Source of the DNA: a virus
Lineage: Duplodnaviria; Caudoviricetes
Reading direction: 5' to 3' (one strand)
DNA: 34,797 bases
Virus record (IMG/VR): IMGVR_UViG_3300012942_000093
Coordinates: 1 to 34,797 of that record
Numbering within the stretch: the first letter of the stretch is position 1; every line of letters begins with the position of its first letter. The notes beneath the pieces are model-generated. The model was not told the origin of the DNA. It searched no databases and was given only the letters and a program-made list of their open reading frames with translations. Both the position numbers and the translations under genes were made by a program. Below are positions 5,624 to 33,774 of this stretch, one piece after another.

Positions 5624-5651
5624 TTAACCACCTTGGCCGTGGTTGTGAGAG

Positions 5652-5660
5652 TGCTATAAT
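5652..5660 (+). promoter_or_regulatory. extended -10 promoter
   Basis: TGcTATAAT. Confidence 0.6.
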
Positions 5661-5701: not shown

Positions 5702-5740
5702 TAAATAAACCCTGTCATAACGATGGGGTTTATTTATATA
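5702..5740. terminator. probable bidirectional intrinsic terminator
   Basis: TAAATAAACCCTGTC-ataac-GATGGGGTTTATTTA, 15-bp stem with 2 G-U pairs. Confidence 0.7.
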
Positions 5741-5770
5741 CCAGAGTATTGTGATATATTTAAACTAGAT

Positions 5771-6184
5771 ATGGGAATGACTACAAAGCAAGTCACTGAC
5801 ATGAATCGCAACCCTAAGGGTAAGGGCGGTTTCGGTGACAATCCACAGAACCGTAGTGACGGTGGTTGGAAGAAAGAGATGGTATTCTCTTACCAGTATA
5901 GGCGCTTTATGAATATGAGCCTTAATGAGCTCAATGATTGGCGTGGACTTGCTGATATGGATAAGAAGGTAGTTGAAGAGCTGGCTTACCAAGCAGTAAT
6001 GAGAGCTAAGGCTAGTCTACCTGATGTTAAAGAGATAACAGATAGAACTGAGGGTAAGGCTAAGGAAAGCATTGATATTACTACAGACGGTGAATCACTT
6101 AATAAGGTACGCCAACTAAGCGATGATGAGTTAGCAGAAAGACTCAGAGAGTACATGAGCAGAGGGAAAAGCGATGGCAAATAA
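5771..6184 (+). CDS. terS: terminase small subunit (putative)
   Basis: NPKGKGGF...NR N-terminus and DRTEGK...IDIT...LSDDEL C-terminus typical of TerS; sits upstream of terL. Start 5771/5777 chosen because 5723 lies inside the hairpin. Confidence 0.75.
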   Translation: MGMTTKQVTDMNRNPKGKGGFGDNPQNRSDGGWKKEMVFSYQYRRFMNMSLNELNDWRGLADMDKKVVEELAYQAVMRAKASLPDVKEITDRTEGKAKESIDITTDGESLNKVRQLSDDELAERLREYMSRGKSDGK

Positions 6185-6299
6185 ATCATCTGTGATATAT
6201 CAAGTAACATACTCAGCTAATAAGGTGCCAGAATTTACGGGTTTATACAAAATTGTATCAAAATGTCTTATCACAGATGGTATAAATGGAAGATTATAG
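6174..6299 (+). CDS. possible 41-aa bridging ORF between terS and terL
   Basis: Overlaps both neighbours; GAGGG upstream. Confidence 0.3.
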   Translation: MANKSSVIYQVTYSANKVPEFTGLYKIVSKCLITDGINGRL

Positions 6300-7896
6300 C
6301 CTAATCGAGCTTCTTGATGAGGCAGACAGGCGTGAAGCACGTGCCAACTGTGTATTCTTCATTGAGCACTACCTAAAGACCTTTGACCCACGTCCCGAGG
6401 CCTACCCACACCATCTACCATTCAAGCTCTACGACTTCCAGAAGGACTATGTAAATGGCCTCGTAAAGGCAATTAGAGAGGGTTACGATGTATTCGATGA
6501 GAAGTCTAGGGATATGGGTGTCTCATGGCTAGCCTTGGCTGTACGCTTTTGGTTCTGGAACTTTGAAGATGGTTATCAGGGCTTACTAGGTTCGCGTAAA
6601 GAAGAGTACGTGGATGATGGCACGCTAGCGTCTCTTTATGGTAAGCTGGACTATTTCATACAGAATATATCCGACCCGCTCATCCTACCTGAGGGATTCG
6701 AGACAAAGAAGCATCGAACGTACATGAAGCTCGTCAACCCAGCTAATGGGAACGTGTTAAAAGGCGAGAGTTCAAACAAGAACTTCTCACGTGGTGGACG
6801 CTACAAGGATGTATTCTTTGACGAGATAGGCTTCTGGCCTGATGCTCGTAGCTCTTGGACTGCAGCAGGAGATGCAACGCACTGCCGACATGGAGTTACT
6901 ACCCCACCTGACGAACCATCATATGCGAGGACGTTGAGATTTTCAGATAAAGTATTAGTACGTACATGGCACTGGTCACTTCACCCTCATAAGGACAAAT
7001 CATGGTACGAGTACGAGAAGACCAGGCGTAGTGAGGAGGAAGTCCTCCATGAGATAGACATCAGCTGGGAATACTCAAACACCGGCCGGCCATACCCTGA
7101 GATTACACGCGTGCCTATCCAACAGGTGGATTATGATGAAGAACTACCTCTTTACGTAGCGATGGACCTTGGCCTTGATGCTGTGGCCCTGGGGTATTAC
7201 CAACCTATAAAGAATAGCGAATGGATAGCTATGATAGACGCACACTTAGAGAGCGACCATATCATGGAGTGGTACTTTCCATTCCTTGGCCTAGAGGATT
7301 GTGTAAACGTAGAAGAGTGCCCGTGGTGTGGAGGCCAGCATAACTTCGAGTACACAGACAAGCAACTGGAGTTTATTAAGAAGGCCAAAGGATGGCGCAA
7401 GGATGTTGTGTTTGGTGACCCATCAGGCAAGCAACGGCATATTGAGTCAGGTGTTAGTCCTTATAAGATACTAGAAGACCATGGCATTGATGTACAAGTG
7501 AATGATATGGAGAATGACTGGATACACCGTAGGGATGCTACGAGACGTTTGTTTACTAAGCTCGTCGTCAACGATACAGAGGGAACACGTTACTGGGCTG
7601 AATGTATTAAGAACGCTCACTACCCCAAGCGTGAGGAGACGAGTCAATCAGTCACCCCAATTACAAAACCGGTGCACGACTGGACATCCCACCATAGGAC
7701 GCAGACAGAGTTCTTCTCAGTGAACTATAAGGGAGAGTATGATATTAACCCAGGGTTTGTTGAACGCAACCCACCAAGTGGTGAGAAAGCAAAGGTAGAG
7801 TGGATGGGACAGGACGATGGTACAATTCAGGGAACAGGTATTGATTTACAACAACTATTAAGTGGAACTGGTGACAGAGATTGGAGAAGCATGTAA
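6286..7896 (+). CDS. terL: terminase large subunit
   Basis: Adenine-binding YDFQ, Walker A EKSRDMGVS, Walker B VFFDE, nuclease AMDLG, GDPSG, PVHDWTSH. Confidence 0.93.
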   Translation: MEDYSLIELLDEADRREARANCVFFIEHYLKTFDPRPEAYPHHLPFKLYDFQKDYVNGLVKAIREGYDVFDEKSRDMGVSWLALAVRFWFWNFEDGYQGLLGSRKEEYVDDGTLASLYGKLDYFIQNISDPLILPEGFETKKHRTYMKLVNPANGNVLKGESSNKNFSRGGRYKDVFFDEIGFWPDARSSWTAAGDATHCRHGVTTPPDEPSYARTLRFSDKVLVRTWHWSLHPHKDKSWYEYEKTRRSEEEVLHEIDISWEYSNTGRPYPEITRVPIQQVDYDEELPLYVAMDLGLDAVALGYYQPIKNSEWIAMIDAHLESDHIMEWYFPFLGLEDCVNVEECPWCGGQHNFEYTDKQLEFIKKAKGWRKDVVFGDPSGKQRHIESGVSPYKILEDHGIDVQVNDMENDWIHRRDATRRLFTKLVVNDTEGTRYWAECIKNAHYPKREETSQSVTPITKPVHDWTSHHRTQTEFFSVNYKGEYDINPGFVERNPPSGEKAKVEWMGQDDGTIQGTGIDLQQLLSGTGDRDWRSM

Positions 7897-8114
7897 TGTG
7901 GACTTGGAGCATTATTTTAACAAGCAAGAACCTACCTCAGGCTGTTCCTTATTTCTGTATGCGTTGCCGGTCAAGACTGTTTCACGTTAATAGAGATGTG
8001 ATGGCAGTATGGCAAGGTGATGGTTATCCTGAGTCTGAGATACCCAAGAACATGGGACTGGTACAAAAGAAATGCCACGGTTGTGAGACTGTATACAACT
8101 TTTATTTCCAGTAA
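7896..8114 (+). CDS. Com-like C4 zinc-ribbon protein, candidate late regulator
   Basis: CMRCRSRLF ... VQKKCHGC resembles the Mu Com pattern with a longer spacer; TAATG-coupled to terL. Confidence 0.6.
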   Translation: MWTWSIILTSKNLPQAVPYFCMRCRSRLFHVNRDVMAVWQGDGYPESEIPKNMGLVQKKCHGCETVYNFYFQ

Positions 8115-8116
8115 TA

Positions 8117-8172
8117 TGCTACAATGCAATCATAAGGTAATAGAGCCGTACATCTTCGTGCGGCTTATTTTA
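8117..8172 (+). promoter_or_regulatory. late leader copy 1 (promoter plus AGCCG hairpin attenuator)
   Basis: TGcTACAAT-N6-ATAAGG-TAATAG-AGCCGTAC/GTGCGGCT-TATTTT. Confidence 0.85.
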
Positions 8173-8187
8173 TAGAGGAGAAAAGCT

Positions 8188-10374
8188 ATTAACCCCCAGC
8201 TCTTTGCGCAACCGCAATCTGACTACAACCTCGACGATCTTGCGAATAAGGATGGTGAGCTTTATCTTCTTCCTGCCGTAAGCCTCGATTTGCCAGATGA
8301 CTACATCATTAAAAACCTACACACAATCATTGAGGACTCTCGCGACTACTACAATGACATCAATCACTTTAACCTCAAGAACAAGCGGTTAAAGAACGCT
8401 CAGATGCTCCAGGGTGCACACCTTGAAGAGAACAAACTGTACCGTCACCAGACACCTTACATTGATAACGAGATATTTGTGGGTATGGATGCTATTCTCG
8501 CCTATGTATGTGCTCAGACTCCTAACGCAGAGGTCTATCCGGCATCAGATAAAGCAGACTCTATGGTACTCGCACGGAATCTAGAGAAATACCTGCACGC
8601 TCACTCTGAGAAGTTTGAGCTACCTCGTAAGCTTGAGGGTGCTGTCTATAATATGGTGGGTAAGTTCGTTGGATTGCTTAAACTTCGATGGGACCCGCTC
8701 TACGGACAGAATGGCGAGATTGTCCCAGAAGTAGTTGACCCTAACCATGTAATTATTGATAAGAACGCCAAGCTAGGTGAGAACCCACGCTTTATCTGTC
8801 ACGTGTTAAAAGACTCAGTTGAGGGGTTATGCGCTAAGTTCCCCGAGAAAGAACAGATAATCCTCGGCCACTTCTCTATCAAGCGCAAAGGCTCACGTAA
8901 CATGAGCGCTGAGGTAGCCTACCGAGAGGTTTGGTTTACCTACTACGATAATGACAACAAACCCCAAGAAGCTGTTGCGTGGTATGTAGACAACATCGTC
9001 CTAGATAAGTCCCCTAATATTAACTGGCTATACGGTGATGAGGGCGAGAACTTCCTCGACGCCCCTATGAAGCCATTTATCCCATTCAACCTTACTAATG
9101 ATGGGTCGCACTGGATTGACCGCACAAACGCATTGGAGCAGGCAATACCCCAGCAGGATATTCTTAATAAGCTGGGCCGCCAGCTACTAGACAACATCGG
9201 TACAGCTAACGGATTTAAGGTTATTGATTCACACGCAATGACTAAGGATGACGCACAGAACTTTACTGGTGACCCTAACCAGCTCCTATTAGTGAAGACA
9301 AAACCAAACCAACGCGTAACTGATGTCGTGGCGCAGCTTAACCCTCAGATGGTATCTGCACAGCTTATCGGTGAAGTAGCGAACGCTAAGCAGGCCGTCC
9401 ACAACATTCTTGGTACACCGTCACAGTTCACTGGCTCAGACGAGAACAAGACTGAAACCGCATCAGAAGCGATGATGATTAAAAACCAGGCCTCAGGCCG
9501 ACAGGATAAGATTGTACGCTCTGTAGACTACGGTATGGGTAAATATTTCCAGTTCCTCGCACAAATGATTACCGTCTGGTACACGGAAAAACATTACGTA
9601 ACAGTTAACGGTGGCGATGGTAGGTTTGATTTTATCGAAATGCACCGTGATAAAATCGAAAAAGGCATGATGGTCAAAGTCCAATCTGGTACCACTCTAC
9701 CATTCGATAAGAGCCGTCAAGAGTCTGTCGCAGTTAACCTCCTTAAGATAGGTGTCATCAGTCCGTACGATGGATATAAACTACTTCATATGGATGACCC
9801 GCAACAGCTTTACGATAACTTTATGAAGTGGAAGTCAGACCCAACCCAACTCGCTATGGACATTGCCACAAATGACGCAAATAGCGATGCAGTGGTAGAC
9901 TGGACGCAGTTAATGAACGGCCAAACGCCTGAGGATAGAGAAGACCCAACCCACGAATATATCGAGCAGATGCGTAAACTCCTTATCTCAGATGAGTTTA
10001 TGAAAGCTAAGCCAAAGATTCAGGGCATCACGATTAAGTTCATCAACAAGGCTATCGACAAGTTCCAACTACAACAGGAACTCCACCAAATGTCTCAAGC
10101 ACCTGAACAAGAGCGCCCGCTACCACCACAAGTCCTCGCCACTGGTGTCCAGCAAGTACAGCCTATGCAACCTCCTATGCCTATGGGTGCTCCGGCGGGA
10201 CAGCCAATGCCGCCTCAAGCCCCACAAATGGGTATGCCTCCTTCTCAATCTCCAATGCAGGCTATTATGCAACAGCCTACTGCAGCGCCAGGAGTTCCAC
10301 CAGTATCAGCTAATGGAGCGCCAGTACAACCTAATGTTAACCTAGGTAACCCAGCACAATTGCCACCAGTTTAA
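8188..10374 (+). CDS. portal protein (P22-like size, Pro/Gln/Met-rich tail)
   Basis: Position after terL and length; start extended to ATT 8188, 7 nt after GAGGAG and in frame with TTG 8290. Confidence 0.85.
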   Translation: MNPQLFAQPQSDYNLDDLANKDGELYLLPAVSLDLPDDYIIKNLHTIIEDSRDYYNDINHFNLKNKRLKNAQMLQGAHLEENKLYRHQTPYIDNEIFVGMDAILAYVCAQTPNAEVYPASDKADSMVLARNLEKYLHAHSEKFELPRKLEGAVYNMVGKFVGLLKLRWDPLYGQNGEIVPEVVDPNHVIIDKNAKLGENPRFICHVLKDSVEGLCAKFPEKEQIILGHFSIKRKGSRNMSAEVAYREVWFTYYDNDNKPQEAVAWYVDNIVLDKSPNINWLYGDEGENFLDAPMKPFIPFNLTNDGSHWIDRTNALEQAIPQQDILNKLGRQLLDNIGTANGFKVIDSHAMTKDDAQNFTGDPNQLLLVKTKPNQRVTDVVAQLNPQMVSAQLIGEVANAKQAVHNILGTPSQFTGSDENKTETASEAMMIKNQASGRQDKIVRSVDYGMGKYFQFLAQMITVWYTEKHYVTVNGGDGRFDFIEMHRDKIEKGMMVKVQSGTTLPFDKSRQESVAVNLLKIGVISPYDGYKLLHMDDPQQLYDNFMKWKSDPTQLAMDIATNDANSDAVVDWTQLMNGQTPEDREDPTHEYIEQMRKLLISDEFMKAKPKIQGITIKFINKAIDKFQLQQELHQMSQAPEQERPLPPQVLATGVQQVQPMQPPMPMGAPAGQPMPPQAPQMGMPPSQSPMQAIMQQPTAAPGVPPVSANGAPVQPNVNLGNPAQLPPV

Positions 10375-10389
10375 TAAGAAAGGAATCAA

Positions 10390-11331
10390 ATGGAAGAAGA
10401 AGTAAAGCCGATCGAAGAGGCCAAACCTGTAGAAGAAGAAAAAGGGTTTAAACTTAATCCAAACCGCCCTCTAAAGAACCAAGTTGATGCGCTTCTTAAA
10501 TCTCTACCAGAGGAGAAGACGGAAGAAACCGAAGAGGAGCCTAAAAAGGTAGAGGAAAAACCTGATACAGTCGAAGAAGTACCCGAAGAGATTGAACTAG
10601 AAGACCTCCCAGAAGAAACAAAGCTCGAACCGCTACCTGACTGGCAGAAGTACGTTCTAGACAACCTCCCTAGCATTCAAGTTATGGGCCATCAGGGTGA
10701 AGAGGGTAAGGATAAAGTATTCACTGTTAAGCGTCTTGAAGACTTACCAGACGACTTTGAATTTGCAAGCAAACGCGCGGAGCTAGCATTTAACTCGGCT
10801 ATCGCTTCACAAGAAGTGAACGCACGCGACCTATTATCTGAATACCGTGGTAAAGAGTCTCAGAGGGCACAAGCAGAGTTTGAGGCACTAGAAGCTGTAG
10901 ACATCCAGAATGATGTTAAGAGCCTCCAAAAAGCTGGTATTCTCCCTAAGTTTAAATATGAAGTGAACGACCCACGCTTTAATGAAGACCCTGCTGTTGA
11001 TGAATCAAACAAGATTTATGACTTCTATAAGAAAATCAACGACGATTACTTTAATAAGTACAATGGGTCAGGCCGTATGTACCGTGTATCGTATGAAGAT
11101 GCTGCTTACCGATACTACGCTCTTCATCCTAAAGAGGCTTCTAAGGAAGTAAAAGAAGCCATCAAAAAGGAAGAAGCTAAGCCTAAGAGTGAGAACCAAG
11201 AGAATCGCGAAAAGGTAGCCTCTAAGGTGAGTGCCCCACAAGGTGCCACACCTGAGGGTAAGTCTCGTCCATTGCCTCCTGGTACTGACTTGAACAGGGT
11301 TTATCAACTATATAAGATGGGAAGAATTTAA
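10390..11331 (+). CDS. capsid scaffolding protein (putative)
   Basis: Acidic, low-complexity, between portal and capsid. Confidence 0.7.
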   Translation: MEEEVKPIEEAKPVEEEKGFKLNPNRPLKNQVDALLKSLPEEKTEETEEEPKKVEEKPDTVEEVPEEIELEDLPEETKLEPLPDWQKYVLDNLPSIQVMGHQGEEGKDKVFTVKRLEDLPDDFEFASKRAELAFNSAIASQEVNARDLLSEYRGKESQRAQAEFEALEAVDIQNDVKSLQKAGILPKFKYEVNDPRFNEDPAVDESNKIYDFYKKINDDYFNKYNGSGRMYRVSYEDAAYRYYALHPKEASKEVKEAIKKEEAKPKSENQENREKVASKVSAPQGATPEGKSRPLPPGTDLNRVYQLYKMGRI

Positions 11332-11503: not shown

Positions 11504-11574
11504 TTGACGCAACTACCTCTCGATGTATAATGAGGGTATAAAGGTAAGAGAGCCGCAGGGCTCTCTTATTTTTT
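11504..11574 (+). promoter_or_regulatory. late leader copy 2
   Basis: TTGACG-16-TATAAT-N6-ATAAAGG; TAAGAGAGCC-gcag-GGCTCTCTTA-TTTTTT. Confidence 0.9.
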
Positions 11575-11607
11575 GTACTAAACTTAAGGAGCAATAAGGA
11601 ACAAAAT

Positions 11608-12696
11608 ATGGCTGGACAAATTTTCACCAACCGTGTGACTGATATTACTTATCAGTACATTTTGCCCGCGCTTGTAGACCAGGTGTCTAACTCCAACGTC
11701 TTCACAAGCAAAATTTTGTCAGAAACGTGTGACTGGGAGGGTGTTAGCTATAACGTTCCTATCCAGACAGCTTTCAGTACAACGGGCGGCTCATTTAACG
11801 GCATGGATACATTCTCTACTGCCGCAACAAACAACACTCGTCAGATGACGTTCTACTTGACTGGTCAATACCAATCAATCGTTATCCCTGGCATCGAAGC
11901 AGCAGTAAACGGTAACACTGAGTCTCAGGTCATTAAGTTGCTTACTGCTAAGATGGACGAAGCAAAAATCTCAATGGCTGACGCTATCGGTACCGAGCTT
12001 TACGGCTTTGGTCTTGGTAAAGCCTTTGACGGTCTCGGCAACGTAGTAGACAACGGTACAAACGCACCAACATACGGTGGTCTGAGCCGCACTACCTACC
12101 CGTTCCTTGACGCTGACGTTACAGCTGTAGCAAACGGTACAATCACACTTAGCTACCTATCAAGCGAATTTGATAACGTGAGCGCAGCAAGCTCTACCTC
12201 AGAGTCTCCAGACTACGGTCTCACAACCAAAGCTATCTGGACATACGTTGAGGGTCTTATCCAACCAATGCTTAGCGCTCGATATGAGAGCACAAGCATC
12301 CGTGGCTACAACCGCGTAGATGGAAAGACTCCACGCAGCACTGGCCCTAACACTGGTGCAGAACTAAGTGGTGCAGGTGGCTTCATCTCTATCACTTGGC
12401 GCGGTCGCGATATGTTCGCAGACGACAAAGCAACAGGTGGTACGTTCTTCTGGATTAACCAGAAGTACCTCGACTTCGCTGTACAGAAGAGTCCTGAACT
12501 TCGGGACATCGGCTCTACAGTTGAGAGTATGCAAGGTTTCTACGAAGATGTTCCGTTCCCATCAGCATTCCAATTCCGCGACATGATGAGCTCAATCAAC
12601 CAGCTCGGTCAGGTAGGTGTTGTGATTCTATTGGGCAACCTTATCTGCCGCCAGCCACGCCGTAACGGTAAACTAACTGGTATTACAGGAAACTAA
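11608..12696 (+). CDS. major capsid protein
   Basis: 362 aa after the scaffold, own promoter and strong SD; C-terminal GNLICRQPRRNGKLTGIT fits a capsid-protein ending. Confidence 0.85.
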   Translation: MAGQIFTNRVTDITYQYILPALVDQVSNSNVFTSKILSETCDWEGVSYNVPIQTAFSTTGGSFNGMDTFSTAATNNTRQMTFYLTGQYQSIVIPGIEAAVNGNTESQVIKLLTAKMDEAKISMADAIGTELYGFGLGKAFDGLGNVVDNGTNAPTYGGLSRTTYPFLDADVTAVANGTITLSYLSSEFDNVSAASSTSESPDYGLTTKAIWTYVEGLIQPMLSARYESTSIRGYNRVDGKTPRSTGPNTGAELSGAGGFISITWRGRDMFADDKATGGTFFWINQKYLDFAVQKSPELRDIGSTVESMQGFYEDVPFPSAFQFRDMMSSINQLGQVGVVILLGNLICRQPRRNGKLTGITGN

Positions 12697-13761: not shown

Positions 13762-13790
13762 TAGCCTCAGAAATGGGGCTATTTCTTTTT
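13762..13790 (+). terminator. intrinsic terminator of the capsid operon
   Basis: TAGCCTC-agaaat-GGGGCTA-TTTCTTTTT. Confidence 0.8.
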
Positions 13791-13819
13791 CAATCAACCT
13801 ATGATAATATGCAGACAAT

Positions 13820-13999
13820 ATGGAACTCAAGCAACTCAACGATAAGAAGTCAGAGCTTGAAACTGCTTTTAATTCTCTAGAATCTGAGAAGCAGCAATTA
13901 AATAAACGTCTCAACGAAATCGCAACCGAGCAGGTTAAAACGCAGGGTGCGCATTCTTTAGTGGAAGAACTTATTAAAGACTTTAAGGAGAAGAAATAA
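13820..13999 (+). CDS. small coiled-coil protein (59 aa, MELKQLND...)
   Basis: Not in the track; TGaTATAAT at 13802-13810 lies 9 nt upstream; TAATG coupling. Confidence 0.7.
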   Translation: MELKQLNDKKSELETAFNSLESEKQQLNKRLNEIATEQVKTQGAHSLVEELIKDFKEKK

Positions 14000-14520
14000 T
14001 GGACAACGATTACTACGGTGCACCATCAAATACAGAGGTAAAACCAATTCGTGAACGCCTACGCGGCATGTACGAACCAGAAGACTTTGTAACCGTTATC
14101 AATGGCGACACTCACCCATTAACGTATCAGTTCGCGGCCCCTCAAGACCAAGAAACATACTCAGACTACCCAGGCCATAAGAATACTTTAATGAAGCGTC
14201 CACCACAGCGCATCACTCTCCAGCCTGGCGATACTAAGCTTGTCCCAGCATACGAAGCAGACCTTATGATTGAGGCAGGTATTAAGCAAATGGCTATGAG
14301 TAAACTACAGGAACGGGTTGACGGTGGGCTTGTTGATGCACGCCAGGCTTCAACTGACTGGACAGACCCATATTTCCAGGTGGAAGCTATTAAGAAGTTC
14401 TACGTAGGGAAAAAAGATATTCTCGCCGCTTACAACACTCAGCCAGTAGCTGATGTAGCAAAGGATTTAGAACTTGATGAGCCAAAGCGACCAATCGGCC
14501 GACCTCGCAAAGAAGTCTAG
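13999..14520 (+). CDS. hypothetical protein with C-terminal AT-hook-like motif
   Basis: Ends PKRPIGRPRKEV. Confidence 0.75.
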   Translation: MDNDYYGAPSNTEVKPIRERLRGMYEPEDFVTVINGDTHPLTYQFAAPQDQETYSDYPGHKNTLMKRPPQRITLQPGDTKLVPAYEADLMIEAGIKQMAMSKLQERVDGGLVDARQASTDWTDPYFQVEAIKKFYVGKKDILAAYNTQPVADVAKDLELDEPKRPIGRPRKEV

Positions 14521-15343
14521 AGAACTCGAAGAAAAGGAACGGGTACTTAATGCTCGTGAGAATATCTTAGAGCGCGAAAAAGCCATACAACAACGCCAAA
14601 AGGTGTTTGATGATGCTGAAACAAAACTCGAAGTACTCCGTAAACAAATCACTGCCCAGGAGGAGATTCTAGAGTCGCGTAAGATGGAGATAGAGAAATT
14701 TACGGATGATGCCAAAGAGAAACTCGATTCTTTCAAAGCTCAAGAATCCGTTGCTAGGCAAGCCACTAAAGCACAGGAAAATAAGCTATCTGACTTAAAG
14801 CGTAAAGAAGCTTTACTCGGTGCCTCTATTAAATCTAGAAACTCAGAACTATCCGACCTCAAAGCCCAGATTAAAGAGACAAAAAGTTATCGAGAAGAAC
14901 AAGAAAAGCTCTCAGAAACCACCATTAGTGAGTGGAATGTCACTTTACAGGAGTTTCGTAAAGAGGCAGATAACATTCAGCTTGATAAGAATAAACTCTC
15001 CGCAGATATTATCCGCCTTGAGCAAGAGAAGATAACCCTTTCGGAGGCCATTGCCCTTACTGAGGCCAAGTTTAACAACCTTGATGCTGGATATACCCAG
15101 AAAGTAGAGGAGTATAAAGACAAACTCCGCGAGTGGGACACTAAGGTTAATGAAAAACGCAATGAGTTTGATAGTCTCGTCTCCTCTATTGATATGAAGA
15201 AGCTAGAAATATCTACGCGCGAAAAGTCGGTGAGGCTTAAAGAGAATGACCTTAACCGTCGTTCTCTTGAGCTAGACCAGAAAGACCGGCGTCTTAGGGG
15301 TGCGTACGGTATGGCTGGAATTGGTTACGAGAATGACGTATAA
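14477..15343 (+). CDS. long coiled-coil protein
   Basis: E/K/L/R heptad-rich throughout. Confidence 0.75.
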   Translation: MSQSDQSADLAKKSRELEEKERVLNARENILEREKAIQQRQKVFDDAETKLEVLRKQITAQEEILESRKMEIEKFTDDAKEKLDSFKAQESVARQATKAQENKLSDLKRKEALLGASIKSRNSELSDLKAQIKETKSYREEQEKLSETTISEWNVTLQEFRKEADNIQLDKNKLSADIIRLEQEKITLSEAIALTEAKFNNLDAGYTQKVEEYKDKLREWDTKVNEKRNEFDSLVSSIDMKKLEISTREKSVRLKENDLNRRSLELDQKDRRLRGAYGMAGIGYENDV

Positions 15344-15383
15344 TACCCTCATAAGGTAAGAGCCGTCAGGGGCTCTTTTTATT
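15339..15383 (+). promoter_or_regulatory. late leader copy 3
   Basis: TATAAT-N6-ATAAGG-T; AAGAGCC-gtcagg-GGCTCTT-TTTATT. Confidence 0.88.
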
Positions 15384-18881: not shown

Positions 18882-18927
18882 TATAATTACCTTATAAGGC
18901 TCCAGCCGCTACTGGAGCTATTTTATT
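18882..18927 (+). promoter_or_regulatory. late leader copy 4
   Basis: TATAAT-N6-ATAAGG; GCTCCAG-ccgcta-CTGGAGC-TATTTTATT. Confidence 0.85.
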
Positions 18928-25044: not shown

Positions 25045-25092
25045 TGATACAATGATTGTATAAGGTAAAGAGCCGCACGAAGCGGTTTTTTT
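25045..25092 (+). promoter_or_regulatory. late leader copy 5
   Basis: TGaTACAAT-N6-ATAAGG-TAAAG; AGCCGC-acgaa-GCGGTT-TTTTT. Confidence 0.88.
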
Positions 25093-25101
25093 GTTTGTAA
25101 A

Positions 25102-25977
25102 ATGCCATTATCAACAGCCGATATAGACCAAATGCAATCGAAACAGTATCAGCAAGATACTGCTCTTCAAAATTTCTATAACCAAAACGCTACTAACGCC
25201 ACCAACCAATATAACACTGCGTATAATGCCTCAAACCAGGCACAAGGCGACCTCTCTAAATTCACGAAGAACATGGTTAGTGGCAACGATGCTTACCAGA
25301 AGCAGCTTCAACTCGCCAACCAGAACGCGGGTTATGATGTTAATAATCTCAATCAGGCACAGAATCAGGTATCACAGCTCACGGGTATACTTGGCGGTCT
25401 TCCTCGCGCTATTCAGGCGTCTAACGCTAACTATGGTGCGACCGCAGGTAACGTGGCGAACCAATATGCCACTACGGGAGCTAACTTAAACCAATCTCTC
25501 CAACTTGCTAACCAGAACGCTCAGAATCAGTTAGCTAAGCAGCAAGGTGGACTCACAGGGGCTCAACAGGGTACGCAGGCCGTCTTGCAGGCACAAGACC
25601 AACAGAGGCAGGCATACACGGCAACTGCTAATAACGCCGCACAAGTTATGGCTACAGCGCAGCAACAAATGCAGGCGATGGTTGCAGCACAACAACAGGG
25701 TCAGCAGCTCACAGCTAACGACCAAGCGACATTCGGTCAATTACGACAGGCATACGCAGCTGCAGCGGCCTCATATGCTCAAGCGAACCTACTTGCTAAG
25801 CAAGCCGAGGCAGCAGATCTTGCGAATCAGCAGACCAGAGATCTTATGTCTCAGGGAACCAATAATAATGTTGACAATGGTTCAGGAAATTATACATCGC
25901 AGTACGGAAACTACGCGCCAGGTGTAAGTAAAGTAACTCAGAAGAATGGAAATATCTTCTACACCCCTAACTTTTAA
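25102..25977 (+). CDS. internal virion/DNA ejection protein (putative)
   Basis: Gln/Ala/Asn-rich helical protein after the tail genes. Confidence 0.55.
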   Translation: MPLSTADIDQMQSKQYQQDTALQNFYNQNATNATNQYNTAYNASNQAQGDLSKFTKNMVSGNDAYQKQLQLANQNAGYDVNNLNQAQNQVSQLTGILGGLPRAIQASNANYGATAGNVANQYATTGANLNQSLQLANQNAQNQLAKQQGGLTGAQQGTQAVLQAQDQQRQAYTATANNAAQVMATAQQQMQAMVAAQQQGQQLTANDQATFGQLRQAYAAAAASYAQANLLAKQAEAADLANQQTRDLMSQGTNNNVDNGSGNYTSQYGNYAPGVSKVTQKNGNIFYTPNF

Positions 25978-25985
25978 GGAATGAA

Positions 25986-27845
25986 ATGAACCCCAACGAC
26001 CCAAACTCTATATCTAGCTATCAGGACTTATCGCAAGTTAACAACACCCCTAGCGGGCCTAATAAGCCAGGTGATTTTTGGTCAACGGTCGGTGGTATAG
26101 CTTTACCTGTGCTTGGTGCACTCCTAGCGCCAGAAACGGGAGGGGCATCCTTACTCGCTAGCACCGCCCTATCTGGGCTAGGTAGTGCTGCAGGTAAGGC
26201 GGTGGATGAGGGTGTATCTGGTGGAGAGTCATCACCTGGAGATATTCTTAGCGCTGGTCTTACGGGAGCTGCTGGAAACCTAGCAGGTGGAGCACTAGTA
26301 AAGGGAGCTGGAAAAGTCCTTAAGGGTGTGGTTAAGCCAGCTGCAGATAAGGCAGCAACATCGCTTGTTCAAGGCCAGGGACAAGGCGCACTAGATAAAG
26401 CAACGTCCGATTACCTTTATAAGAATGGCGTTACCGACCTAAGACAAATGGGTGATATTCATCCTATTGTCACAGGGGAAGGCGGCGCTTTGAATAACGC
26501 AGTAAACAACTCCTTGCTTAACGCGGCTGATGAGGGAGCGCGACTCGACCTTAGTAGCCTTGCTCCCGTTGGGAAAGGTGCACCGGGCAATACTGTACTC
26601 AATGCTGTGCGCGAGGCGGGAATCGCGGGTGATTCTAACTCAGTGAAAGGTGTACAAGAGTTTATTCAAGGGCAACTCGAAAAGTATAATCCTGATGCGA
26701 TTAAAAGCGTAGCGCCGAAGAGAGGAGGAGGCGTTGTAAACAGTTTTGATAATGGTGTTCTTAACGCGCAACATCCTCTCGACGCATTAAATATGACTAA
26801 AGCTATGGATAGTCGGGCAGCAGCATGGCTAAAATCTTCGTCTCCTAACATCCAAGCTCAAGGAAAAGCACTACGGAACGTATCGAACACTATTAAGGAC
26901 AATCTCTATGGTGAGAGGACCTCTATCGGTCAGACTGGCATCACTGACCAAGTACGAAAAACTGCTATAGATGAACTCGCACCCCTTAAAGATATAAATC
27001 CTACTTACTATGAAGCGAAAGTTAATGAACTGAATGGTGCTAAAACTATTGGCGAACTCCGCACTGCTCAAAAGCCAGAGGTAATTGCTAACCAGGCATT
27101 AGAGTTCGCTCAGAATAAAGCCAATACAACAGGTGGTACTAACTTACCTGAACTATTCAAGGTTGGGGCACCTGTAGCTGGTATGTCTGTTGGTGGTCCT
27201 GCTGGCCTAGCCGCAGGTATGATCGCACCTAAAGTTCTCGGCTCAAATGCTGCTAACGTAGCAGGTGCCGGTACGCTCGCTAAGCTATCTAAGACTATCG
27301 GTAATGAGAAAGCACAGAAAGTTATGGACACACTCGGACGAGCTGGAGGTGTTCTAGCAGCTAATGCTCCTAATATGGGTGCTGCACCAGTAGAAAGCTT
27401 ACCTAACACATCTTTACAAGGAGAAACTATGAACGGAGGTCAACCCCAGAATCAGAATACTATCAATGCTCTCTTGCAGACCATGTTAACTCATCCATCC
27501 ATATATGGTGGCCAAATGGGCGGAGTGTTATCCTCTATCGCACCTCAGCTTCAAAGTAACGCTATACTACAAGGTGAAATCGGCGCACTACCTGGTGGCA
27601 TAGCCAATGCTGGTGGCGCACAAGGCCTAGGTGGTATCGGTAGTGTTATATCCGGCCTCGTACCAGGAACCGCTGCGAACGCCTACCGAGGTCAACAAGC
27701 GGCTGTTGCAGCTCAGCTTGCTAAGACTCTCGGCATTTCTCCTGAGGCGGCACAGCAACTTCTTCCTAGTCTTCTGCAAAACGAACAAACTGCCGGAATG
27801 CGGCAGAATGTTCTTGGTGGTATCGCTGGGGCTTTGCCTAGCTAA
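25986..27845 (+). CDS. internal virion/DNA ejection protein (putative)
   Basis: Gly/Ala-rich hydrophobic segments (LAPETGGASL, GGPAGLAAG). Confidence 0.6.
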   Translation: MNPNDPNSISSYQDLSQVNNTPSGPNKPGDFWSTVGGIALPVLGALLAPETGGASLLASTALSGLGSAAGKAVDEGVSGGESSPGDILSAGLTGAAGNLAGGALVKGAGKVLKGVVKPAADKAATSLVQGQGQGALDKATSDYLYKNGVTDLRQMGDIHPIVTGEGGALNNAVNNSLLNAADEGARLDLSSLAPVGKGAPGNTVLNAVREAGIAGDSNSVKGVQEFIQGQLEKYNPDAIKSVAPKRGGGVVNSFDNGVLNAQHPLDALNMTKAMDSRAAAWLKSSSPNIQAQGKALRNVSNTIKDNLYGERTSIGQTGITDQVRKTAIDELAPLKDINPTYYEAKVNELNGAKTIGELRTAQKPEVIANQALEFAQNKANTTGGTNLPELFKVGAPVAGMSVGGPAGLAAGMIAPKVLGSNAANVAGAGTLAKLSKTIGNEKAQKVMDTLGRAGGVLAANAPNMGAAPVESLPNTSLQGETMNGGQPQNQNTINALLQTMLTHPSIYGGQMGGVLSSIAPQLQSNAILQGEIGALPGGIANAGGAQGLGGIGSVISGLVPGTAANAYRGQQAAVAAQLAKTLGISPEAAQQLLPSLLQNEQTAGMRQNVLGGIAGALPS

Positions 27846-28086
27846 GCTTCTTAATGGTCAGTTCTCTATCTGGAGACTTAAGGTCAATGCTAAATTCAAG
27901 TTCATCGTCTAGCGAGTAGCCTAACTTTACGGCTACCTGCTTTATATATTCGGTTTTTAGCTGATTAAACCAGTAGTCACTACCTCTTTGTACATTGTCT
28001 AGGTTTGTGAGGTATTGGAAGTCCACGTCATCAATAGTATACTTTTTCTCTACTTCTTCGATTTGTTTTTTAATCTTTTGGCTCAT
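27838..28086 (-). CDS. hypothetical protein
   Basis: Last gene of the inverted operon; AAGGAGG SD. Confidence 0.7.
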   Translation of the reverse strand: MSQKIKKQIEEVEKKYTIDDVDFQYLTNLDNVQRGSDYWFNQLKTEYIKQVAVKLGYSLDDELEFSIDLKSPDRELTIKKLS

Positions 28087-28327
28087 AGTCCTCCTTCTTA
28101 ATGATTTTTATACCGCGGAATGTAATTTCACCGAGCATATGATATGGAGATGATAACATTTTTGATACCTCTTTTTTAAGCCTTTTATATGTGGCATCGG
28201 TAACCACTATAATATCTGGACGCGAAGATAATTTACCGGCCACTGTTCTATCATCTATCTCTTTGCTTATATATTTTGATACAGGAGACGGTATATCTTC
28301 TGAAAACATAAGAATAAGTTGACTCAT
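28070..28327 (-). CDS. hypothetical protein
   Basis: ATGA coupling. Confidence 0.65.
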   Translation of the reverse strand: MSQLILMFSEDIPSPVSKYISKEIDDRTVAGKLSSRPDIIVVTDATYKRLKKEVSKMLSSPYHMLGEITFRGIKIIKKEDYEPKD

Positions 28328-28572
28328 AATTCTCTCTCAATCCTTTTAATTACATCTTCGCTAAAATACTTTTTGGATTCCTCAGGGTAGTTTTTAATAA
28401 ACTCTGGGTTCGCCTTACTATCTTTATAGGGTTGGATAATCTCTTTAGAGAATTGTTTGCGTTCCATATCGTGACGCCATTCCTTATGGGTTGGGTTTAC
28501 ATCAAAACCCATTGGTTTATCCTCCCCACGGTGGTACTTTCCATCAGAGCCAATATATCCTGTTGAGGTCAT
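28324..28572 (-). CDS. hypothetical protein
   Basis: ATGA coupling. Confidence 0.7.
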   Translation of the reverse strand: MTSTGYIGSDGKYHRGEDKPMGFDVNPTHKEWRHDMERKQFSKEIIQPYKDSKANPEFIKNYPEESKKYFSEDVIKRIEREL

Positions 28573-28808
28573 ATATTCCTAATCCTTGCCTGTTCCTCAC
28601 GTTCTATCTGGTCAGGAGTTTTAGGGGACACGATGTATGATTGTTCAGTAACATCAGCATACCCAGGACGGAGAGGAGTTATTACTCTAGCCTCTGGTTC
28701 GGGGTCGCGATTCCATATATTTCTCGCTAACTCTAGTATACGGTGCAAGTACAGACCGATGTGTACACCTGTCGAAAGTCCAATTAAAATTCCCACTATA
28801 AGTTCCAT
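28569..28808 (-). CDS. small protein with N-terminal membrane anchor
   Basis: Start revised to ATG 28808 (MELIVGILIGL), just after the groEL stop, with AAGGAG SD. Confidence 0.7.
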   Translation of the reverse strand: MELIVGILIGLSTGVHIGLYLHRILELARNIWNRDPEPEARVITPLRPGYADVTEQSYIVSPKTPDQIEREEQARIRNI

Positions 28809-28809
28809 A

Positions 28810-30333
28810 CTACTCCTTGTCTGGGTCTGGTAGTGCGGCACTTGCCGTAATGAGGCCCCTTACTAGTGCAATAGCGTTTGTCGCTACTTCTGAAATGACT
28901 AATGATGGGTCAATGACGCCTTCTTCTAGCATATCTACAGGTTTGTCTGTGATGTTGCGGAGGTTGAAACCTTGCCATACGTCTGCCTCTTCTAGTTTAG
29001 CAAGGTAAGATTCTGGATTAAGACCGGCGTTATCGAAGAGTGCCTTAAATGGTTGTTTAAATGCCTCATCAAACTCAGTGCCTTTTACTCGGGCGAGCGT
29101 AGAACCACCACCTGGTAGGATTCCGTCTTTCATCGCGCTCTGAACTGCACAAACGGCATCTTGAACACGCAATTTAGTCTCTTCGCGCTCAAATTCAATC
29201 GCACCACCCACGCGGATGATAGCCATTTTACCCGTGAGACGTGCGAGGCGTTCCTTGATGAACTGGATGGATTGCGGATGCTCTTCTTCTGCGAGTTGCT
29301 TCCTGAGGCTCTCGATACGCTCCTTTACCTCTTTATCATCGCTATCGCCTTGTAAGATGGTAGTTGAGTGTTCAGTGACAAGGACTTCACTAGCAAACCC
29401 TAAGTGTGCTTCAGGAGAGAAGTTTACACCATCATATACAGTCGCACCTGTCTTGAGTGCAATGTCATCGAGGAAGAGTGTACGACCACCTACGGTATAT
29501 GGAGGGTCGATAGGGACAGCTAGAAGAAGACCTTTCGCGCGGGTCATTACAAGAGTTTCAAGGGCTGCATTATTGACTTCGCCAACAATAACAAGTTCTT
29601 TTATACCTTTCCTCACAATACTATTAAGGAGTTCGCCAATTTCAACTTCTGTATTAAAAGCCTTGTTAGATACGAGGATAGCCACATCTTTATGAAGAGA
29701 CTGATTTGAAGATTGGTCGTTAATGAGTGCAGTATCTTTATATCCTCTAGGAAAATAGAAGCCATCTACGATGTCGTTGTGGACACCGAGACCCTCGTAC
29801 TGTTCAATCATCACACCACCATCTACCCCAACTTCTTGGAGGACATCTGAAATCATCGCTCCTAGCTCAGGGTCGCCCGCAGAAACCGTGGCGACTTTTT
29901 GTAAGTCTTCCTCGGTGGTTTTCTTTTTAATAGAGTCGATGTATTCGAGTACTTTCTTTTCGGCTTGTCGGAGTTTCTCTGAAACCTCCATAGGATTTAC
30001 ACCCTTACTCTCAAGCTTTCGAGCAGCCTGTAAGAGGTGGTGTGAGAGAATAACGACTGCGGTTGTTCCATCGCCTACCTTTTGGTTGTTCTTTTCAGAA
30101 GCTTCTACGATTACTTTCGCAATGTCATCCTCGATTGCATCGGCGAGTTTGATACGCTTAATGTTCGTTACGCCATCCCTTGAGAGAAGTGGTGCGCCCG
30201 ATTTAAACCCTACGATAACATTACCAGCCTTTGGCCCATAAGCGGCTTTAGCTACTTTATATACTTGCTCGCTAGCACTAGCAGTCTTATTCTGTAGTAC
30301 GTCTCTGTCAGTTACGATGTCCGTTGCTTTCAT
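28810..30333 (-). CDS. groEL: chaperonin GroEL (Cpn60), divergent phage-encoded
   Basis: YGPK, DGVT, GDGTT, ERLARL, IRVGG, RVQDA, GILPGGG, GVIDP. Confidence 0.95.
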   Translation of the reverse strand: MKATDIVTDRDVLQNKTASASEQVYKVAKAAYGPKAGNVIVGFKSGAPLLSRDGVTNIKRIKLADAIEDDIAKVIVEASEKNNQKVGDGTTAVVILSHHLLQAARKLESKGVNPMEVSEKLRQAEKKVLEYIDSIKKKTTEEDLQKVATVSAGDPELGAMISDVLQEVGVDGGVMIEQYEGLGVHNDIVDGFYFPRGYKDTALINDQSSNQSLHKDVAILVSNKAFNTEVEIGELLNSIVRKGIKELVIVGEVNNAALETLVMTRAKGLLLAVPIDPPYTVGGRTLFLDDIALKTGATVYDGVNFSPEAHLGFASEVLVTEHSTTILQGDSDDKEVKERIESLRKQLAEEEHPQSIQFIKERLARLTGKMAIIRVGGAIEFEREETKLRVQDAVCAVQSAMKDGILPGGGSTLARVKGTEFDEAFKQPFKALFDNAGLNPESYLAKLEEADVWQGFNLRNITDKPVDMLEEGVIDPSLVISEVATNAIALVRGLITASAALPDPDKE

Positions 30334-30608
30334 TCTTCTGAAGTCCCATCTATATCATTTATTAAAATAAGTGCTAGTTTCTCTCCAGTAGGAAGAACGC
30401 CAACTCTTAGGTCATCCTTGTATAGTTTCCAGTAACCTATTTTTCCTACAAGATACCCATACGAATCTTTATCTTTTTCATTGACTGATAGTATCGTACC
30501 GCTCGTTACACTATCATAAGTTTTCTCTGGCACTGGAATAGCGCCATATTCAGAAGTTTCGAGTCTGACGAGCACACGTCCTTCTTGGGGTTCGATCACT
30601 CTTTGCAT
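30330..30608 (-). CDS. groES: co-chaperonin GroES-like (Cpn10)
   Basis: IEPQEGRVLVR...IPVPE...SGTILSV...LILINDIDG mirrors the GroES layout; ATGA-coupled to groEL. Confidence 0.8.
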   Translation of the reverse strand: MQRVIEPQEGRVLVRLETSEYGAIPVPEKTYDSVTSGTILSVNEKDKDSYGYLVGKIGYWKLYKDDLRVGVLPTGEKLALILINDIDGTSEE

Positions 30609-30670
30609 ACCTCGCACTATACTATATAATCACCTTATAAGGCAACAGCCGCGTCAGTGCGGTTGTTTTT
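30603..30670 (+). promoter_or_regulatory. late leader copy 6
   Basis: TTGCAT-16-TATAAT-N6-ATAAGG-C; AACAGCCGC-gtcagt-GCGGTTGTT-TTT. Confidence 0.88.
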
Positions 30671-30683
30671 AATAGGAGAACCT

Positions 30684-30878
30684 ATGAAAGACATGAAGAA
30701 AGTACTATCAAAGGCTAAAGCAGCTAAAGAGGCTCGTGGTGGCAAAGATATGGGCAAAAAAGGCAAGAACTTCGATAAAATCGCAGATAAAGCCGGTAAA
30801 GAGTACGGCTCTAAAGAGGCCGGTGAACGTGTAGCAGGCGCGATGTTCCAGAAAATGAGGAAAGCGGGAAAACTCTAG
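30684..30878 (+). CDS. small Lys-rich basic protein
   Basis: ATG 30684 after AGGAG. Confidence 0.75.
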   Translation: MKDMKKVLSKAKAAKEARGGKDMGKKGKNFDKIADKAGKEYGSKEAGERVAGAMFQKMRKAGKL

Positions 30879-31244
30879 ATGAAAGTCGAAGTAGGGTCAT
30901 TTACCGTCAACAGCACAAATGTTCTGATTGACCTTAATGACTATACAATGAATGTTAGAGGTATTTCTTTTCAAGTCACTCCGAGTACAACGAGCAGCGC
31001 AGAGTCATCTACAGGATTTAGCGATGGTACACGTAACCGTTCTAAGTCAATTCTTGTAGACAGCACCAAACGTGAATCATACCGCTCTACAACTTACGCG
31101 ATTATGCATTATAGGAATGTCAGTGGTACAAGCACTCGTAAGCTCGCAGGATACGTCACAAGCTTTTCTCAAGGCGAGTTTGGAATGACTTTCGATAATT
31201 ACGATGCTACATTAACAGTTGACTTTATTGTATACGGGGACTAG
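30879..31244 (+). CDS. stand-alone domain resembling the fibre tip of 18230-18850
   Basis: Visual alignment to the C-terminal domain of the fibre tip protein. Confidence 0.6.
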   Translation: MKVEVGSFTVNSTNVLIDLNDYTMNVRGISFQVTPSTTSSAESSTGFSDGTRNRSKSILVDSTKRESYRSTTYAIMHYRNVSGTSTRKLAGYVTSFSQGEFGMTFDNYDATLTVDFIVYGD

Positions 31245-31246
31245 AC

Positions 31247-31561
31247 GTGGAACAACGCTCACAAGCAGAATCAGAACAGCCAGCCAAAGTATACCAGCTC
31301 GATGCCGTGATGAATAAAGTTCTAGAGGTAAATGGTAAACTTGACACGCTCCTCACCCAGACAAGTGGCCTCGTGACCACCTCGCAACTTTCCGCAAGTG
31401 AGCAAACCACCAATGAAAAGATTAAGGAAGAGATCGAAAAGATACATCTTGAGTATGGCCCTTTAAAAAGGAACATTAACTGGTTATTTAGGACAATTAT
31501 TGGCGAATCCGTAATTATTATTGGAGAGGCGATAATAATGTACCTCGCCTTAAAAAAATAA
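31247..31561 (+). CDS. coiled-coil membrane protein of the lysis cassette
   Basis: Coiled coil plus C-terminal hydrophobic segment. Confidence 0.6.
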   Translation: MEQRSQAESEQPAKVYQLDAVMNKVLEVNGKLDTLLTQTSGLVTTSQLSASEQTTNEKIKEEIEKIHLEYGPLKRNINWLFRTIIGESVIIIGEAIIMYLALKK

Positions 31562-32043
31562 TGAAAAAGCTGAGATATATAGCATGGTTCGTATTACTCA
31601 TAGCTTTAGCGGCAAGTGTGCTTACTACTTATATACTCATTCAACAACAAGGTTCTCTTAAAGAGAATCTAAAAGATGTTATTTCTTCACAGGTCCATTC
31701 AGAGATAAGCAATATTCCAACCCCTACAAATGGAACGGATGGTAAAAATGCCACTCCCGAACAGATAAGCCACGCTGTTAGCACCTATCTCGCGCAGAAC
31801 CCAATTAAAAATGGGTCTAACGGTACGAATGGCTCAAATGCAACAGACGAACAAGTACAGCAAGCAGTCAATAACTATTTAATAGCTAACCCTATAAAGA
31901 ACACTGACGGAAAAGATGGTATCGACGGGAAAACCCCACAGATACAATGTAACCTACTTAAAAACAGATGGGAGGTAAAGTATTCGGAAACAGATAATTG
32001 GCAGGTACTCAACGGCCAGATTGTTAAATGCGCAATAAATTAA
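31561..32043 (+). CDS. membrane-anchored protein with short collagen-like repeats
   Basis: N-terminal TM; GTDGKN, GSNGTNG, DGKDGIDGK; repeated AV..YL..NPIKN. Confidence 0.7.
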   Translation: MKKLRYIAWFVLLIALAASVLTTYILIQQQGSLKENLKDVISSQVHSEISNIPTPTNGTDGKNATPEQISHAVSTYLAQNPIKNGSNGTNGSNATDEQVQQAVNNYLIANPIKNTDGKDGIDGKTPQIQCNLLKNRWEVKYSETDNWQVLNGQIVKCAIN

Positions 32044-32054
32044 AGGAGATAAAT

Positions 32055-33239
32055 ATGCCAAGTATTGATTCAACAATTCAGTGGTACGAAGATAGAAAGG
32101 GTAAGGTAACTTACTCTATGACAGAACGTCGCGGCCCTAATAGCTACGATTGTTCTAGTGCGCTATATTTCTCTCTCATTCAAGGTGGGTTCTTACCATC
32201 AAACATCTATATCGGCAACACGGATACTCTGTTTAATGATTTAGAGCATAATGGATGGGTACAATTGCAACCAAACGCTCAGGGAAACTTTGATACTAAA
32301 CGCGGTGATGTATTTATATGGGGTATTAGGGGCAATTCCACAGGAAGTCTAGGACATACTGGTATATTTACGGACGAAGATAATATAGACCATTGTAGCT
32401 ACGGATATAACGGTATAGCGACTAGTAATTATGACTGGCTTCATTCAGTTAATGGTAATGTTCCCCAGACTTTCTACAGGTACAGCGGCACTACTCAGGG
32501 GATAGTTAATAATCCAACAGACCAAGTAGTAGAGATTGGTTCGTATATCGCGTTCGATCAGTCGTATACAGCTGATGATGTACAAGCTATTAGCGACGTT
32601 TGGCAAGTACGCACCAATGTTCTGTGTCCTGTTGGCTTTACTTGGGCTGATAATGGCATCCCTGCCGCTGCCGTAGTAGAAGTTGACTCAGATGGCTACG
32701 CTACTACCGACCAGGTGCTCGATATTGGTTCACATTATAAGATTCCTGGAAAGTTTCTTGTATCAGACGTTGGACAAAGTAGTGGACGATGGTTGGCTAA
32801 GATTGAATATAGTGGATTATCATTCTGGGTAGACCTTGAAACTGCTACAGAGGTATCGGGTGATAACTCAGGTACACCAGTTCCTATTGCACGTCCATTA
32901 CCTGTGCCGACAATATCATCACCAACCGCGCCACAACAACCCGTACATCAAGAAGAGCCAGAAAAGCCACCAGTTGTGAGCCAACCTCAAGATACAGCTA
33001 CACAAACACCTGCGGTCGGTAACACTGGCATACTACAGGATATGTACACTAAACTAGAGTCTAATAAGACGATACTAACTAATATCGTCATTACATTCTT
33101 ACAGACAGCTGGTGCAACGTGGGCTACTACAAACTTCTCTATGGATAGACTTGCTTTAGCTGGTGCGATTGGCGCAGGATTCTCTGCAGTATACAACTTG
33201 GTTCTAAAGCCTGCATTTAAAGCCCTGCTGAATAAATGA
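32055..33239 (+). CDS. endolysin (NlpC/P60 Amidase_5-like) with C-terminal holin-like segment
   Basis: VTYSM...GPNSYDCSS, RGDVFIWG, GHTG; AAGGAG SD before ATG 32055. Confidence 0.88.
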   Translation: MPSIDSTIQWYEDRKGKVTYSMTERRGPNSYDCSSALYFSLIQGGFLPSNIYIGNTDTLFNDLEHNGWVQLQPNAQGNFDTKRGDVFIWGIRGNSTGSLGHTGIFTDEDNIDHCSYGYNGIATSNYDWLHSVNGNVPQTFYRYSGTTQGIVNNPTDQVVEIGSYIAFDQSYTADDVQAISDVWQVRTNVLCPVGFTWADNGIPAAAVVEVDSDGYATTDQVLDIGSHYKIPGKFLVSDVGQSSGRWLAKIEYSGLSFWVDLETATEVSGDNSGTPVPIARPLPVPTISSPTAPQQPVHQEEPEKPPVVSQPQDTATQTPAVGNTGILQDMYTKLESNKTILTNIVITFLQTAGATWATTNFSMDRLALAGAIGAGFSAVYNLVLKPAFKALLNK

Positions 33240-33439
33240 AAGAGCTCACGGAGTTTTTAGTACAGAACTTTGGGTACCCTTATGGTGGGCTCTACTCAAA
33301 CCTGATTGCCTCTGCCATACTTGCTGGATTAGGGTATCTATGGGGACGAAGAGCGGAGTCTAACCACGAGCGCAGGCACCAGGAAGCGTTAGAGATGCAC
33401 CGCAAAACTCATGAATTACTAGACAAGAAGAAAAAGTAA
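33236..33439 (+). CDS. small membrane protein, holin/antiholin candidate
   Basis: One TM, charged basic tail, ATGA overlap with the endolysin. Confidence 0.55.
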   Translation: MKELTEFLVQNFGYPYGGLYSNLIASAILAGLGYLWGRRAESNHERRHQEALEMHRKTHELLDKKKK

Positions 33440-33440
33440 G

Positions 33441-33769: not shown

Positions 33770-33774
33770 AGTAT

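Follow-up and report, generated by a model that had tools for sequence, protein, structure and literature searches.

How a phage turns on its late genes, and whether a small zinc-ribbon protein encoded between the terminase and portal genes could be the switch, are the questions raised by this locus. We addressed them in an IMG/VR virus record of 34,797 nucleotides (the window, ~88% of the genome), for which a first-pass annotation had proposed that a Com-like RNA binder acts as an antiterminator at several leaders marked by an AGCCG motif. The gene content is podovirus-like and includes GroEL, an Amidase_5 endolysin, and a portal and an adaptor of the SU10 type. The host is likely Saccharibacteria (TM7)-like, judging from the sequence relationships, because the closest named phage is the TM7 phage DolZOral124_53_65 (MG269973; capsid identity 52%) and one relative sits within a 0.9-Mb MAG. 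The features discussed below are collected in Table 1.

Table 1 Features of the late region in the window, and the HTH genes of related genomes
Feature	Positions	Strand	Basis or elements
Predicted ungated promoter of the terS-terL-zinc-ribbon unit	5633..5660	+	TTGGCC/16/TG-TATAAT
Terminase small subunit, probable	5723..6184	+	Position; without family match
Terminase large subunit, terL	6286..7896	+	Family searches
Candidate antiterminator: C4 zinc-ribbon protein of 72 aa, remotely related to Com	7896..8114	+	ORF, homologues, HHalign
Leader 1	8117..8175	+	Extended -10 8120-8125, GGT 8136-8138, AGCCG 8144-8148, hairpin 8143-8166, U-tract
Portal, SU10-type	8188..10374	+	Likely ATT start at 8188 behind GAGGAG SD
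Leader 2	11504..11576	+	TTGACG/16/TATAAT promoter (-10 from 11526), motif, covarying terminator hairpin, U-tract
Major capsid protein	11608..12696	+	phrog_9953
Leader 3	15339..15383	+	-10 from 15339; precedes structural gene (likely ATA 15396)
Structural gene after leader 3	Likely ATA start 15396	+	
Leader 4	18882..18925	+	-10 from 18882; AGCCG runs into terminator loop; precedes gene 18937 and adaptor/tail block
Leader 5	25048..25095	+	-10 from 25048; precedes genes 25102-27845 (likely ejected internal proteins); without clear SD
Leader 6	30625..30672	+	-10 from 30625; precedes 30684-33439 block including Amidase_5 endolysin (32028-33239)
HTH gene	L125:20335-20556; G008:C1:3162-3362; five more genomes		After capsid gene

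For the portal, the apparent start codon is an in-frame ATT with its SD at normal spacing, and ATT, ATC, ATA or ATG stands at the equivalent place in the relatives L001-L005, L018, L031, L093 and L122. Such recurrent non-AUG starts may reduce the yield of low-copy virion proteins. A GroES-like/GroEL (Cpn60) operon that includes four small genes (27838-30617, minus strand) is divergent from leader 6 and also occurs in the TM7 phage and in MW202566. The endolysin joins Amidase_5 and zoocin A target-recognition domains, which are typical against Gram-positive walls; given that this is likely a Saccharibacteria phage, we speculate that the enzyme might attack the host's own host. The DUF6745 gene start (1-139) contains a 12-nt tandem repeat coding DQVR units. 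The non-coding region 33434-33830 holds a 26-nt inverted pair with TACAAT-type -10s, ~290 nt apart, and two motif-less promoter and terminator sites (33443, 33797), from which small or antisense RNAs are possible.

The zinc-ribbon gene and its relation to Mu Com

The 72-aa protein carries C21-x2-C24, LF at residues 28-29 and K59-C60-x2-C63, as the first-pass annotation had read from the sequence. Its coupling to terL was also read correctly, with a TAATG junction in which the last A of the terL TAA is the A of the ATG, and so was the distance of 5 nt between its stop codon (8112-8114) and the -10 of the TG-C-TACAAT element of leader 1. This geometry holds in the window but is not general, since the gap in relatives ranges from 0 nt to several hundred nt, with inserted genes, or the gene has its own promoter. 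In almost every locus the gene is flanked by terL and portal, and in capsid-anchored loci it is upstream of portal wherever that region is covered, with the fragment L032 as the exception. No motif leader was found after the predicted promoter of the unit (5633-5660). In the relative G004 (C1:15154) a motif leader, absent in the window, lies upstream of the zinc-ribbon gene itself, which suggests positive autoregulation. A zinc-ribbon-like gene (10311-10598, E 8e-4) also lies between terL and portal in MW202566 (L136), where capsid identity is only 27% and the capsid leader has a promoter and terminator (13860-14000).

We aligned 68 family members, taken from homologues and from genes read out of the loci, and the four cysteines (C21, C24, C60, C63) are invariant in all of them. 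The cysteines and the beta-ribbon structure model (pLDDT 72) fit a four-Cys zinc-ribbon pattern, by which the protein would bind zinc. Pairwise HHalign comparison of this family with the Mu Com family gave a probability of 96.2% (E 2.3e-9), with both knuckles colinear and a ~20-aa insert in the phage family; against the single Mu Com sequence the probability was 93%. The Com score was reached by none of 100 shuffles with fixed cysteines for alignment A5 and by 1 of 100 for the narrower alignment A3, and one family member is labelled 'FluMu protein Com' by JGI. The window protein did not match PF10122 (Zn_ribbon_Com) in a Pfam search, and only 5 of the 68 members did so (E 0.017-0.1), while S27e was matched by 10 and Zn_ribbon_4 by 13. 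Searches of Pfam, PHROGs and NCBIfam found no family for the window protein, only a weak HNH knuckle match. Thus, by profile comparison the protein is Com-like through remote homology, which upholds the earlier assignment, but the similarity lies below the Pfam cut-off, spans the ~20-aa insert and does not make the protein a member of PF10122.

Two other relationships were considered and rejected. S27e and MsrB gave weak knuckle matches in a PDB sequence search, with the knuckles of S27e in permuted order, and a P2 Ogr-type DNA activator gave an HHalign probability of 1.8% over 7 columns, with near-consensus promoters in the phage. Foldseek found no match in PDB or BFVD at E<=0.001 and the best VIA-align Z was 3.8; these fold searches are uninformative and should not be taken as evidence of a new fold. 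The ESM Atlas returned matches only to unnamed or generic ribbon clusters (0.92).

In PMC6483171, the Com target is described as a short hairpin with the motif CC(N)2-3GAG, a C-G closing pair and an important A in the GA; this hairpin adjoins an inhibitory structure and has the GA/A at the 3' side of its loop. Like Com, the phage protein is a small zinc ribbon of the C4 type and shares the colinear signature rCxxCxxLFk ... iEikCxxCk. It too belongs to a phage late-gene context, and its proposed hairpin target lies beside an inhibitory structure; in one lineage the leaders match the Mu site. It differs in the spacing between knuckles (35 aa compared with 16 in Com) and in having an N-terminal extension and ending 9 aa after the last cysteine, whereas Com has a C-terminal tail. 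The inhibitory structure is a predicted terminator instead of the SD- and start-sequestering hairpin of Mu, and there are six targets across the late region instead of one gene. No mom gene was seen in the window.

Terminator-type leaders with a two-part motif

The six leaders of the window all lie on the plus strand, each before a late gene, and their targets are the portal, the capsid, two structural blocks, the block starting at 25102 and the lysis block. Each is a composite of a -10, 6-9 nt, AAGGY, a variable gap of 2-6 nt, AGCCG, a hairpin and a U-tract. With patterns fitted post hoc to these same data, a loose scan found six leaders on the plus strand and none on the minus strand, whereas 1963 shuffles averaged 0.13 and never exceeded 3, and the strict pattern had no match in 200 shuffles. 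A motif-free scan for a strong -10, a terminator and an ORF returned the same six sites and one site on the minus strand. AGCCG by itself, which had given the leaders their name, is at chance level in the window (47 matches, 44 expected), so that the repeated element is the composite and not the pentamer.

The hairpins have predicted energies of -11 to -21 kcal/mol, with z values from -2.5 to -6.7, and are followed directly by the U-tract. Comparison of 11 close capsid leaders reveals double changes at 6 of the 12 stem pairs, which supports the earlier view that the leaders are of terminator type, and an invariant AGCC whose A is often mismatched. Sequestration of the SD was rejected for the window, since in all six leaders the U-tract precedes the start region, which is outside the hairpin. 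Rfam gave no leader match, only one chance IRES match (E 0.13).

Among distinct terminator-bearing capsid leaders, the two-part motif RGY...AGC(C) is present in 70 of 76 and missing as defined in 6, with the conserved A unpaired in ~20, by a recount in which L091 is incomplete. GGY lies upstream of the stem and unpaired in 28 leaders, AGC(C) lies in the terminator loop in at least 9, and both halves lie within the 5' arm in 26, as assigned by an automatic classifier that took a wrong hairpin or motif start in L029, L030, G014, G009, G011, G015 and G018. Because GGY can stand outside the stem and AGC(C) in the loop, each half is conserved beyond what termination needs. The spacer between the halves varies from 4 to 17 nt, which fits RNA recognition better than a DNA dimer site. 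A motif-blind control found the motif in 86 of 101 promoter-proximal hairpin and U-tract sites but in 13 of 74 others, and by eye 11 of these 13 resemble leaders with weaker -10s.

Highly expressed phage mRNAs, such as that of T7 gene 10, can carry 5' hairpins and U-rich tracts before their SDs. With this precedent, the hairpins could be unregulated, either as stabilizers of the 5' end with U-rich translation enhancers or as leaky constitutive terminators that tune dosage, and the portal motif hairpins of L091, L116 and L118, which have no U-tract, would suit this view. However, the U-tract abuts the stem directly in 64 of 65 capsid leaders, the sequence is kept where it is unpaired or mismatched, and leaders are missing wherever the zinc-ribbon gene is missing (see below). 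We consider unregulated hairpins very unlikely. The hairpins that follow the zinc-ribbon gene in L091, L092, L116 and L118 are promoter-proximal and carry the motif with a longer 5' stem, GGCAA/TTGCC, which in L118 is GACAA/TTGTC, a double change. They have neither a U-tract nor a clear SD, and here the zinc-ribbon protein possibly acts on translation or stability.

In every arrangement of the capsid leaders, pairing of GGY with GCC would take bases from the terminator. This helix has only 3 bp (-2 to -4 kcal/mol) and is nearly invariant, almost without covariation support (one double change by eye, in L121). In the lineage G001:C70, five leaders read AAGCC-N3/4-GAGCA and three of these five match both the CC(N)2-3GAG motif of Com and the Mu site, a match spotted after inspecting several lineages. 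The same motif is found in one of three leaders of G003 and in none of the six in the window.

Co-occurrence of the gene and the leaders

We placed the relatives on a 95-taxon tree of capsid proteins, from which L019 was left out for its truncated capsid gene. The tree holds 62 phages with both gene and leader, 19 with neither, one with the gene only (G008), none with the leader only, and 13 leader-positive fragments whose gene status was scored as unknown. Capsid leaders thus occur in 62 of 63 gene-positive and none of 19 gene-negative phages, and the refuting case named in the first-pass annotation, a related phage with leaders but lacking this gene, was not found among them. In L032 leaders are present and the zinc ribbon is not, but this fragment lacks terL and is 19% complete, and it was scored as unknown. 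The gene-negative phages form two clades only (support 0.997 and 0.984, with a weak root), so their co-absence amounts to roughly two independent events. In G008, which retains the gene, a search of the whole sequence found no leader.

The TM7 phage DolZOral124_53_65, which is complete, shares with the window its capsid similarity, the adjacency of terL and portal and a Cpn60 gene on the opposite strand, but it has neither zinc ribbon nor leaders, and its capsid gene is followed by an HTH gene. Its wider clade was sampled by an IMG/VR portal scan, from which 7 of 36 records were left out, in place of the metagenome contigs L059-L070, which do not reach the capsid genes. Within this clade, 11 of 28 records have the gene. 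A capsid leader is present in 10 of these 11 and in none of the 17 gene-negative records. Portal leaders are absent from this clade whether or not the gene is present, its gene-positive members mostly have one or two leaders, and many gene-positive phages lack a portal leader.

The first-pass annotation had recognised no other late activator in the window, a statement that is weak by itself for a window of ~88% of the genome. A comparison of gene families between 13 leader-positive and 11 leader-less genomes put the zinc ribbon at the top together with one other family, a coiled coil (14474-15343) of similar pattern that is found in 12 of the 13 and none of the 11. In the window, the stretch 13762-15343 contains an ordinary motif-less terminator (13762-13781), a fresh -10-like site and genes for 59 aa, 173 aa and the 289-aa coiled coil. 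The leaders could accordingly be true attenuators opened by this protein, whose unit appears ungated, by the product of a gene in the missing ~12% or by a host factor, leaving the zinc ribbon as a packaging accessory that goes with terL and portal. The coiled-coil protein, however, has no nucleic-acid-binding domain match, ranges in length between 100 and 300 aa and may owe its matches to low complexity. The packaging role would agree with the place of the zinc-ribbon gene between terL and portal and with its retention in G008, but 19 phages have the same terL-portal module and no zinc ribbon, so packaging does not need it, and the closest profile match is an RNA binder whose site is matched by the leaders of one lineage. 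We regard another opener, with a packaging role for the zinc ribbon, as unlikely.

In 7 of the 11 leader-less genomes, including G008, the capsid gene is immediately followed by a small HTH gene, an arrangement seen in none of 14 others. The capsid promoters of the HTH-carrying genomes lack a -35 of the TTGACA type, and a GCC/GTC-ACAG/AGAG-like element upstream is common to them. It is possible, from these sequence patterns, that the HTH protein is a DNA-binding late activator that replaced the RNA switch.

A candidate late switch by local antitermination

We propose, as a fairly probable reading, that the zinc ribbon is a Com-derived RNA binder which holds the small GGY/GCC hairpin and so prevents each terminator from folding, an antitermination that would act locally at multiple sites. 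Com homology, terminator-type leaders and co-occurrence all speak for the antiterminator reading put forward earlier, while the lack of a Pfam hit, the absence of the Com motif from the window's leaders, G008, the reduction of the co-absence to two lineages and the coiled-coil family hold it back.

Host RNA polymerase would start at the consensus promoters and by default stop after ~35-45 nt; the promoter and terminator sequences are observed, whereas their function and the steps that follow are what we infer from them. The transcript's 5' end would first fold the weak 3-bp GGY-loop-A-GCC hairpin. One or both halves of this hairpin form part of the 5' arm of the terminator, so the two structures are mutually exclusive. 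The zinc ribbon, supplied by the ungated terS-terL unit, would bind this short hairpin in the way that Com recognises its GA-containing loop, a step to which Com homology and co-occurrence point. Held by the protein while the polymerase crosses the U-tract, the hairpin would keep the terminator from forming, and the portal, capsid, tail, ejection and lysis units would come on together once the protein accumulates. Such action is predicted to be local and not processive, because each unit has its own motif copy that overlaps its own terminator.

The proposed circuit combines features of known systems. In BglG, SacY and LicT control, the protein stabilizes a weak leader hairpin (RAT) that overlaps the 5' arm of a terminator. 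The same stabilization is proposed here, but the protein is unrelated (no such domain match), the element has 3 bp and lies within ~15 nt of the predicted start, and it serves a phage late programme with no metabolite signal. The late activators P2 Ogr and P4 Delta are likewise 72-aa C4 zinc-binding proteins, but they lack profile similarity to this family, and the promoters here are near-consensus with the conserved element downstream of the -10.

Lambda Q acts processively, by modifying polymerase at a single promoter. In the PR'-tR' arrangement of lambda, the late promoter is constitutive but a terminator gates it until a phage protein opens the way, and Q loads at promoter-proximal pauses. 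The window resembles lambda in its predicted terminator-gated late promoters and their proposed opening by a phage protein, but has six promoters, each with its own overlapping motif and terminator. The zinc ribbon could act on RNA polymerase in this way, Q-like or processively, with AAGGY/AGCC as a DNA or pause-loading site. The place of the motif behind the -10 is early and fixed, and TAAGGT, which resembles a -10-like pause element, is found in three of the six window leaders. Against this, many relatives, like leaders 4 and 6, lack the final T of the hexamer, and the spacer length varies, as described above. The motif also always overlaps its own terminator, and the whole set-up is repeated for every unit, which would be needless if the action were processive. 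Action on the polymerase is in our judgement quite unlikely.

To our knowledge, Com is known from one target only, the translation of mom in Mu. Our literature searches found no description of late control of the kind proposed here. The main text of PMC5737381, as far as it was available, does not mention 'Com' or 'zinc', although its supplements could hold a related motif, and nothing relevant was found in the accessible part of PMC13059738.

A broader view, for and against which we see the case as evenly balanced, is that Com-type zinc ribbons are a widespread and so far undescribed class of late master regulators of phages, acting as multi-site RNA-binding antiterminators on a minimal 5'-end hairpin. 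They would be the ancestral late switch of Saccharibacteria phages, with lineage-specific protein-RNA codes, one of which still matches the Mu Com site, and with replacement by an HTH protein in one lineage, and the use at Mu mom would be derived.

If the local antitermination proposed here is true, a 72-aa Com relative would control all of the late programme, with a ~12-nt motif as its means of opening six terminators. Apart from the polymerase of the host, only a ~45-nt leader and a small protein would be needed, and the lineage-specific motif variants would provide natural cognate and non-cognate pairs that may be used as compact orthogonal transcription switches. It would also give a concrete gene-control circuit for phages that infect Saccharibacteria-like bacteria, in which regulation is little studied.
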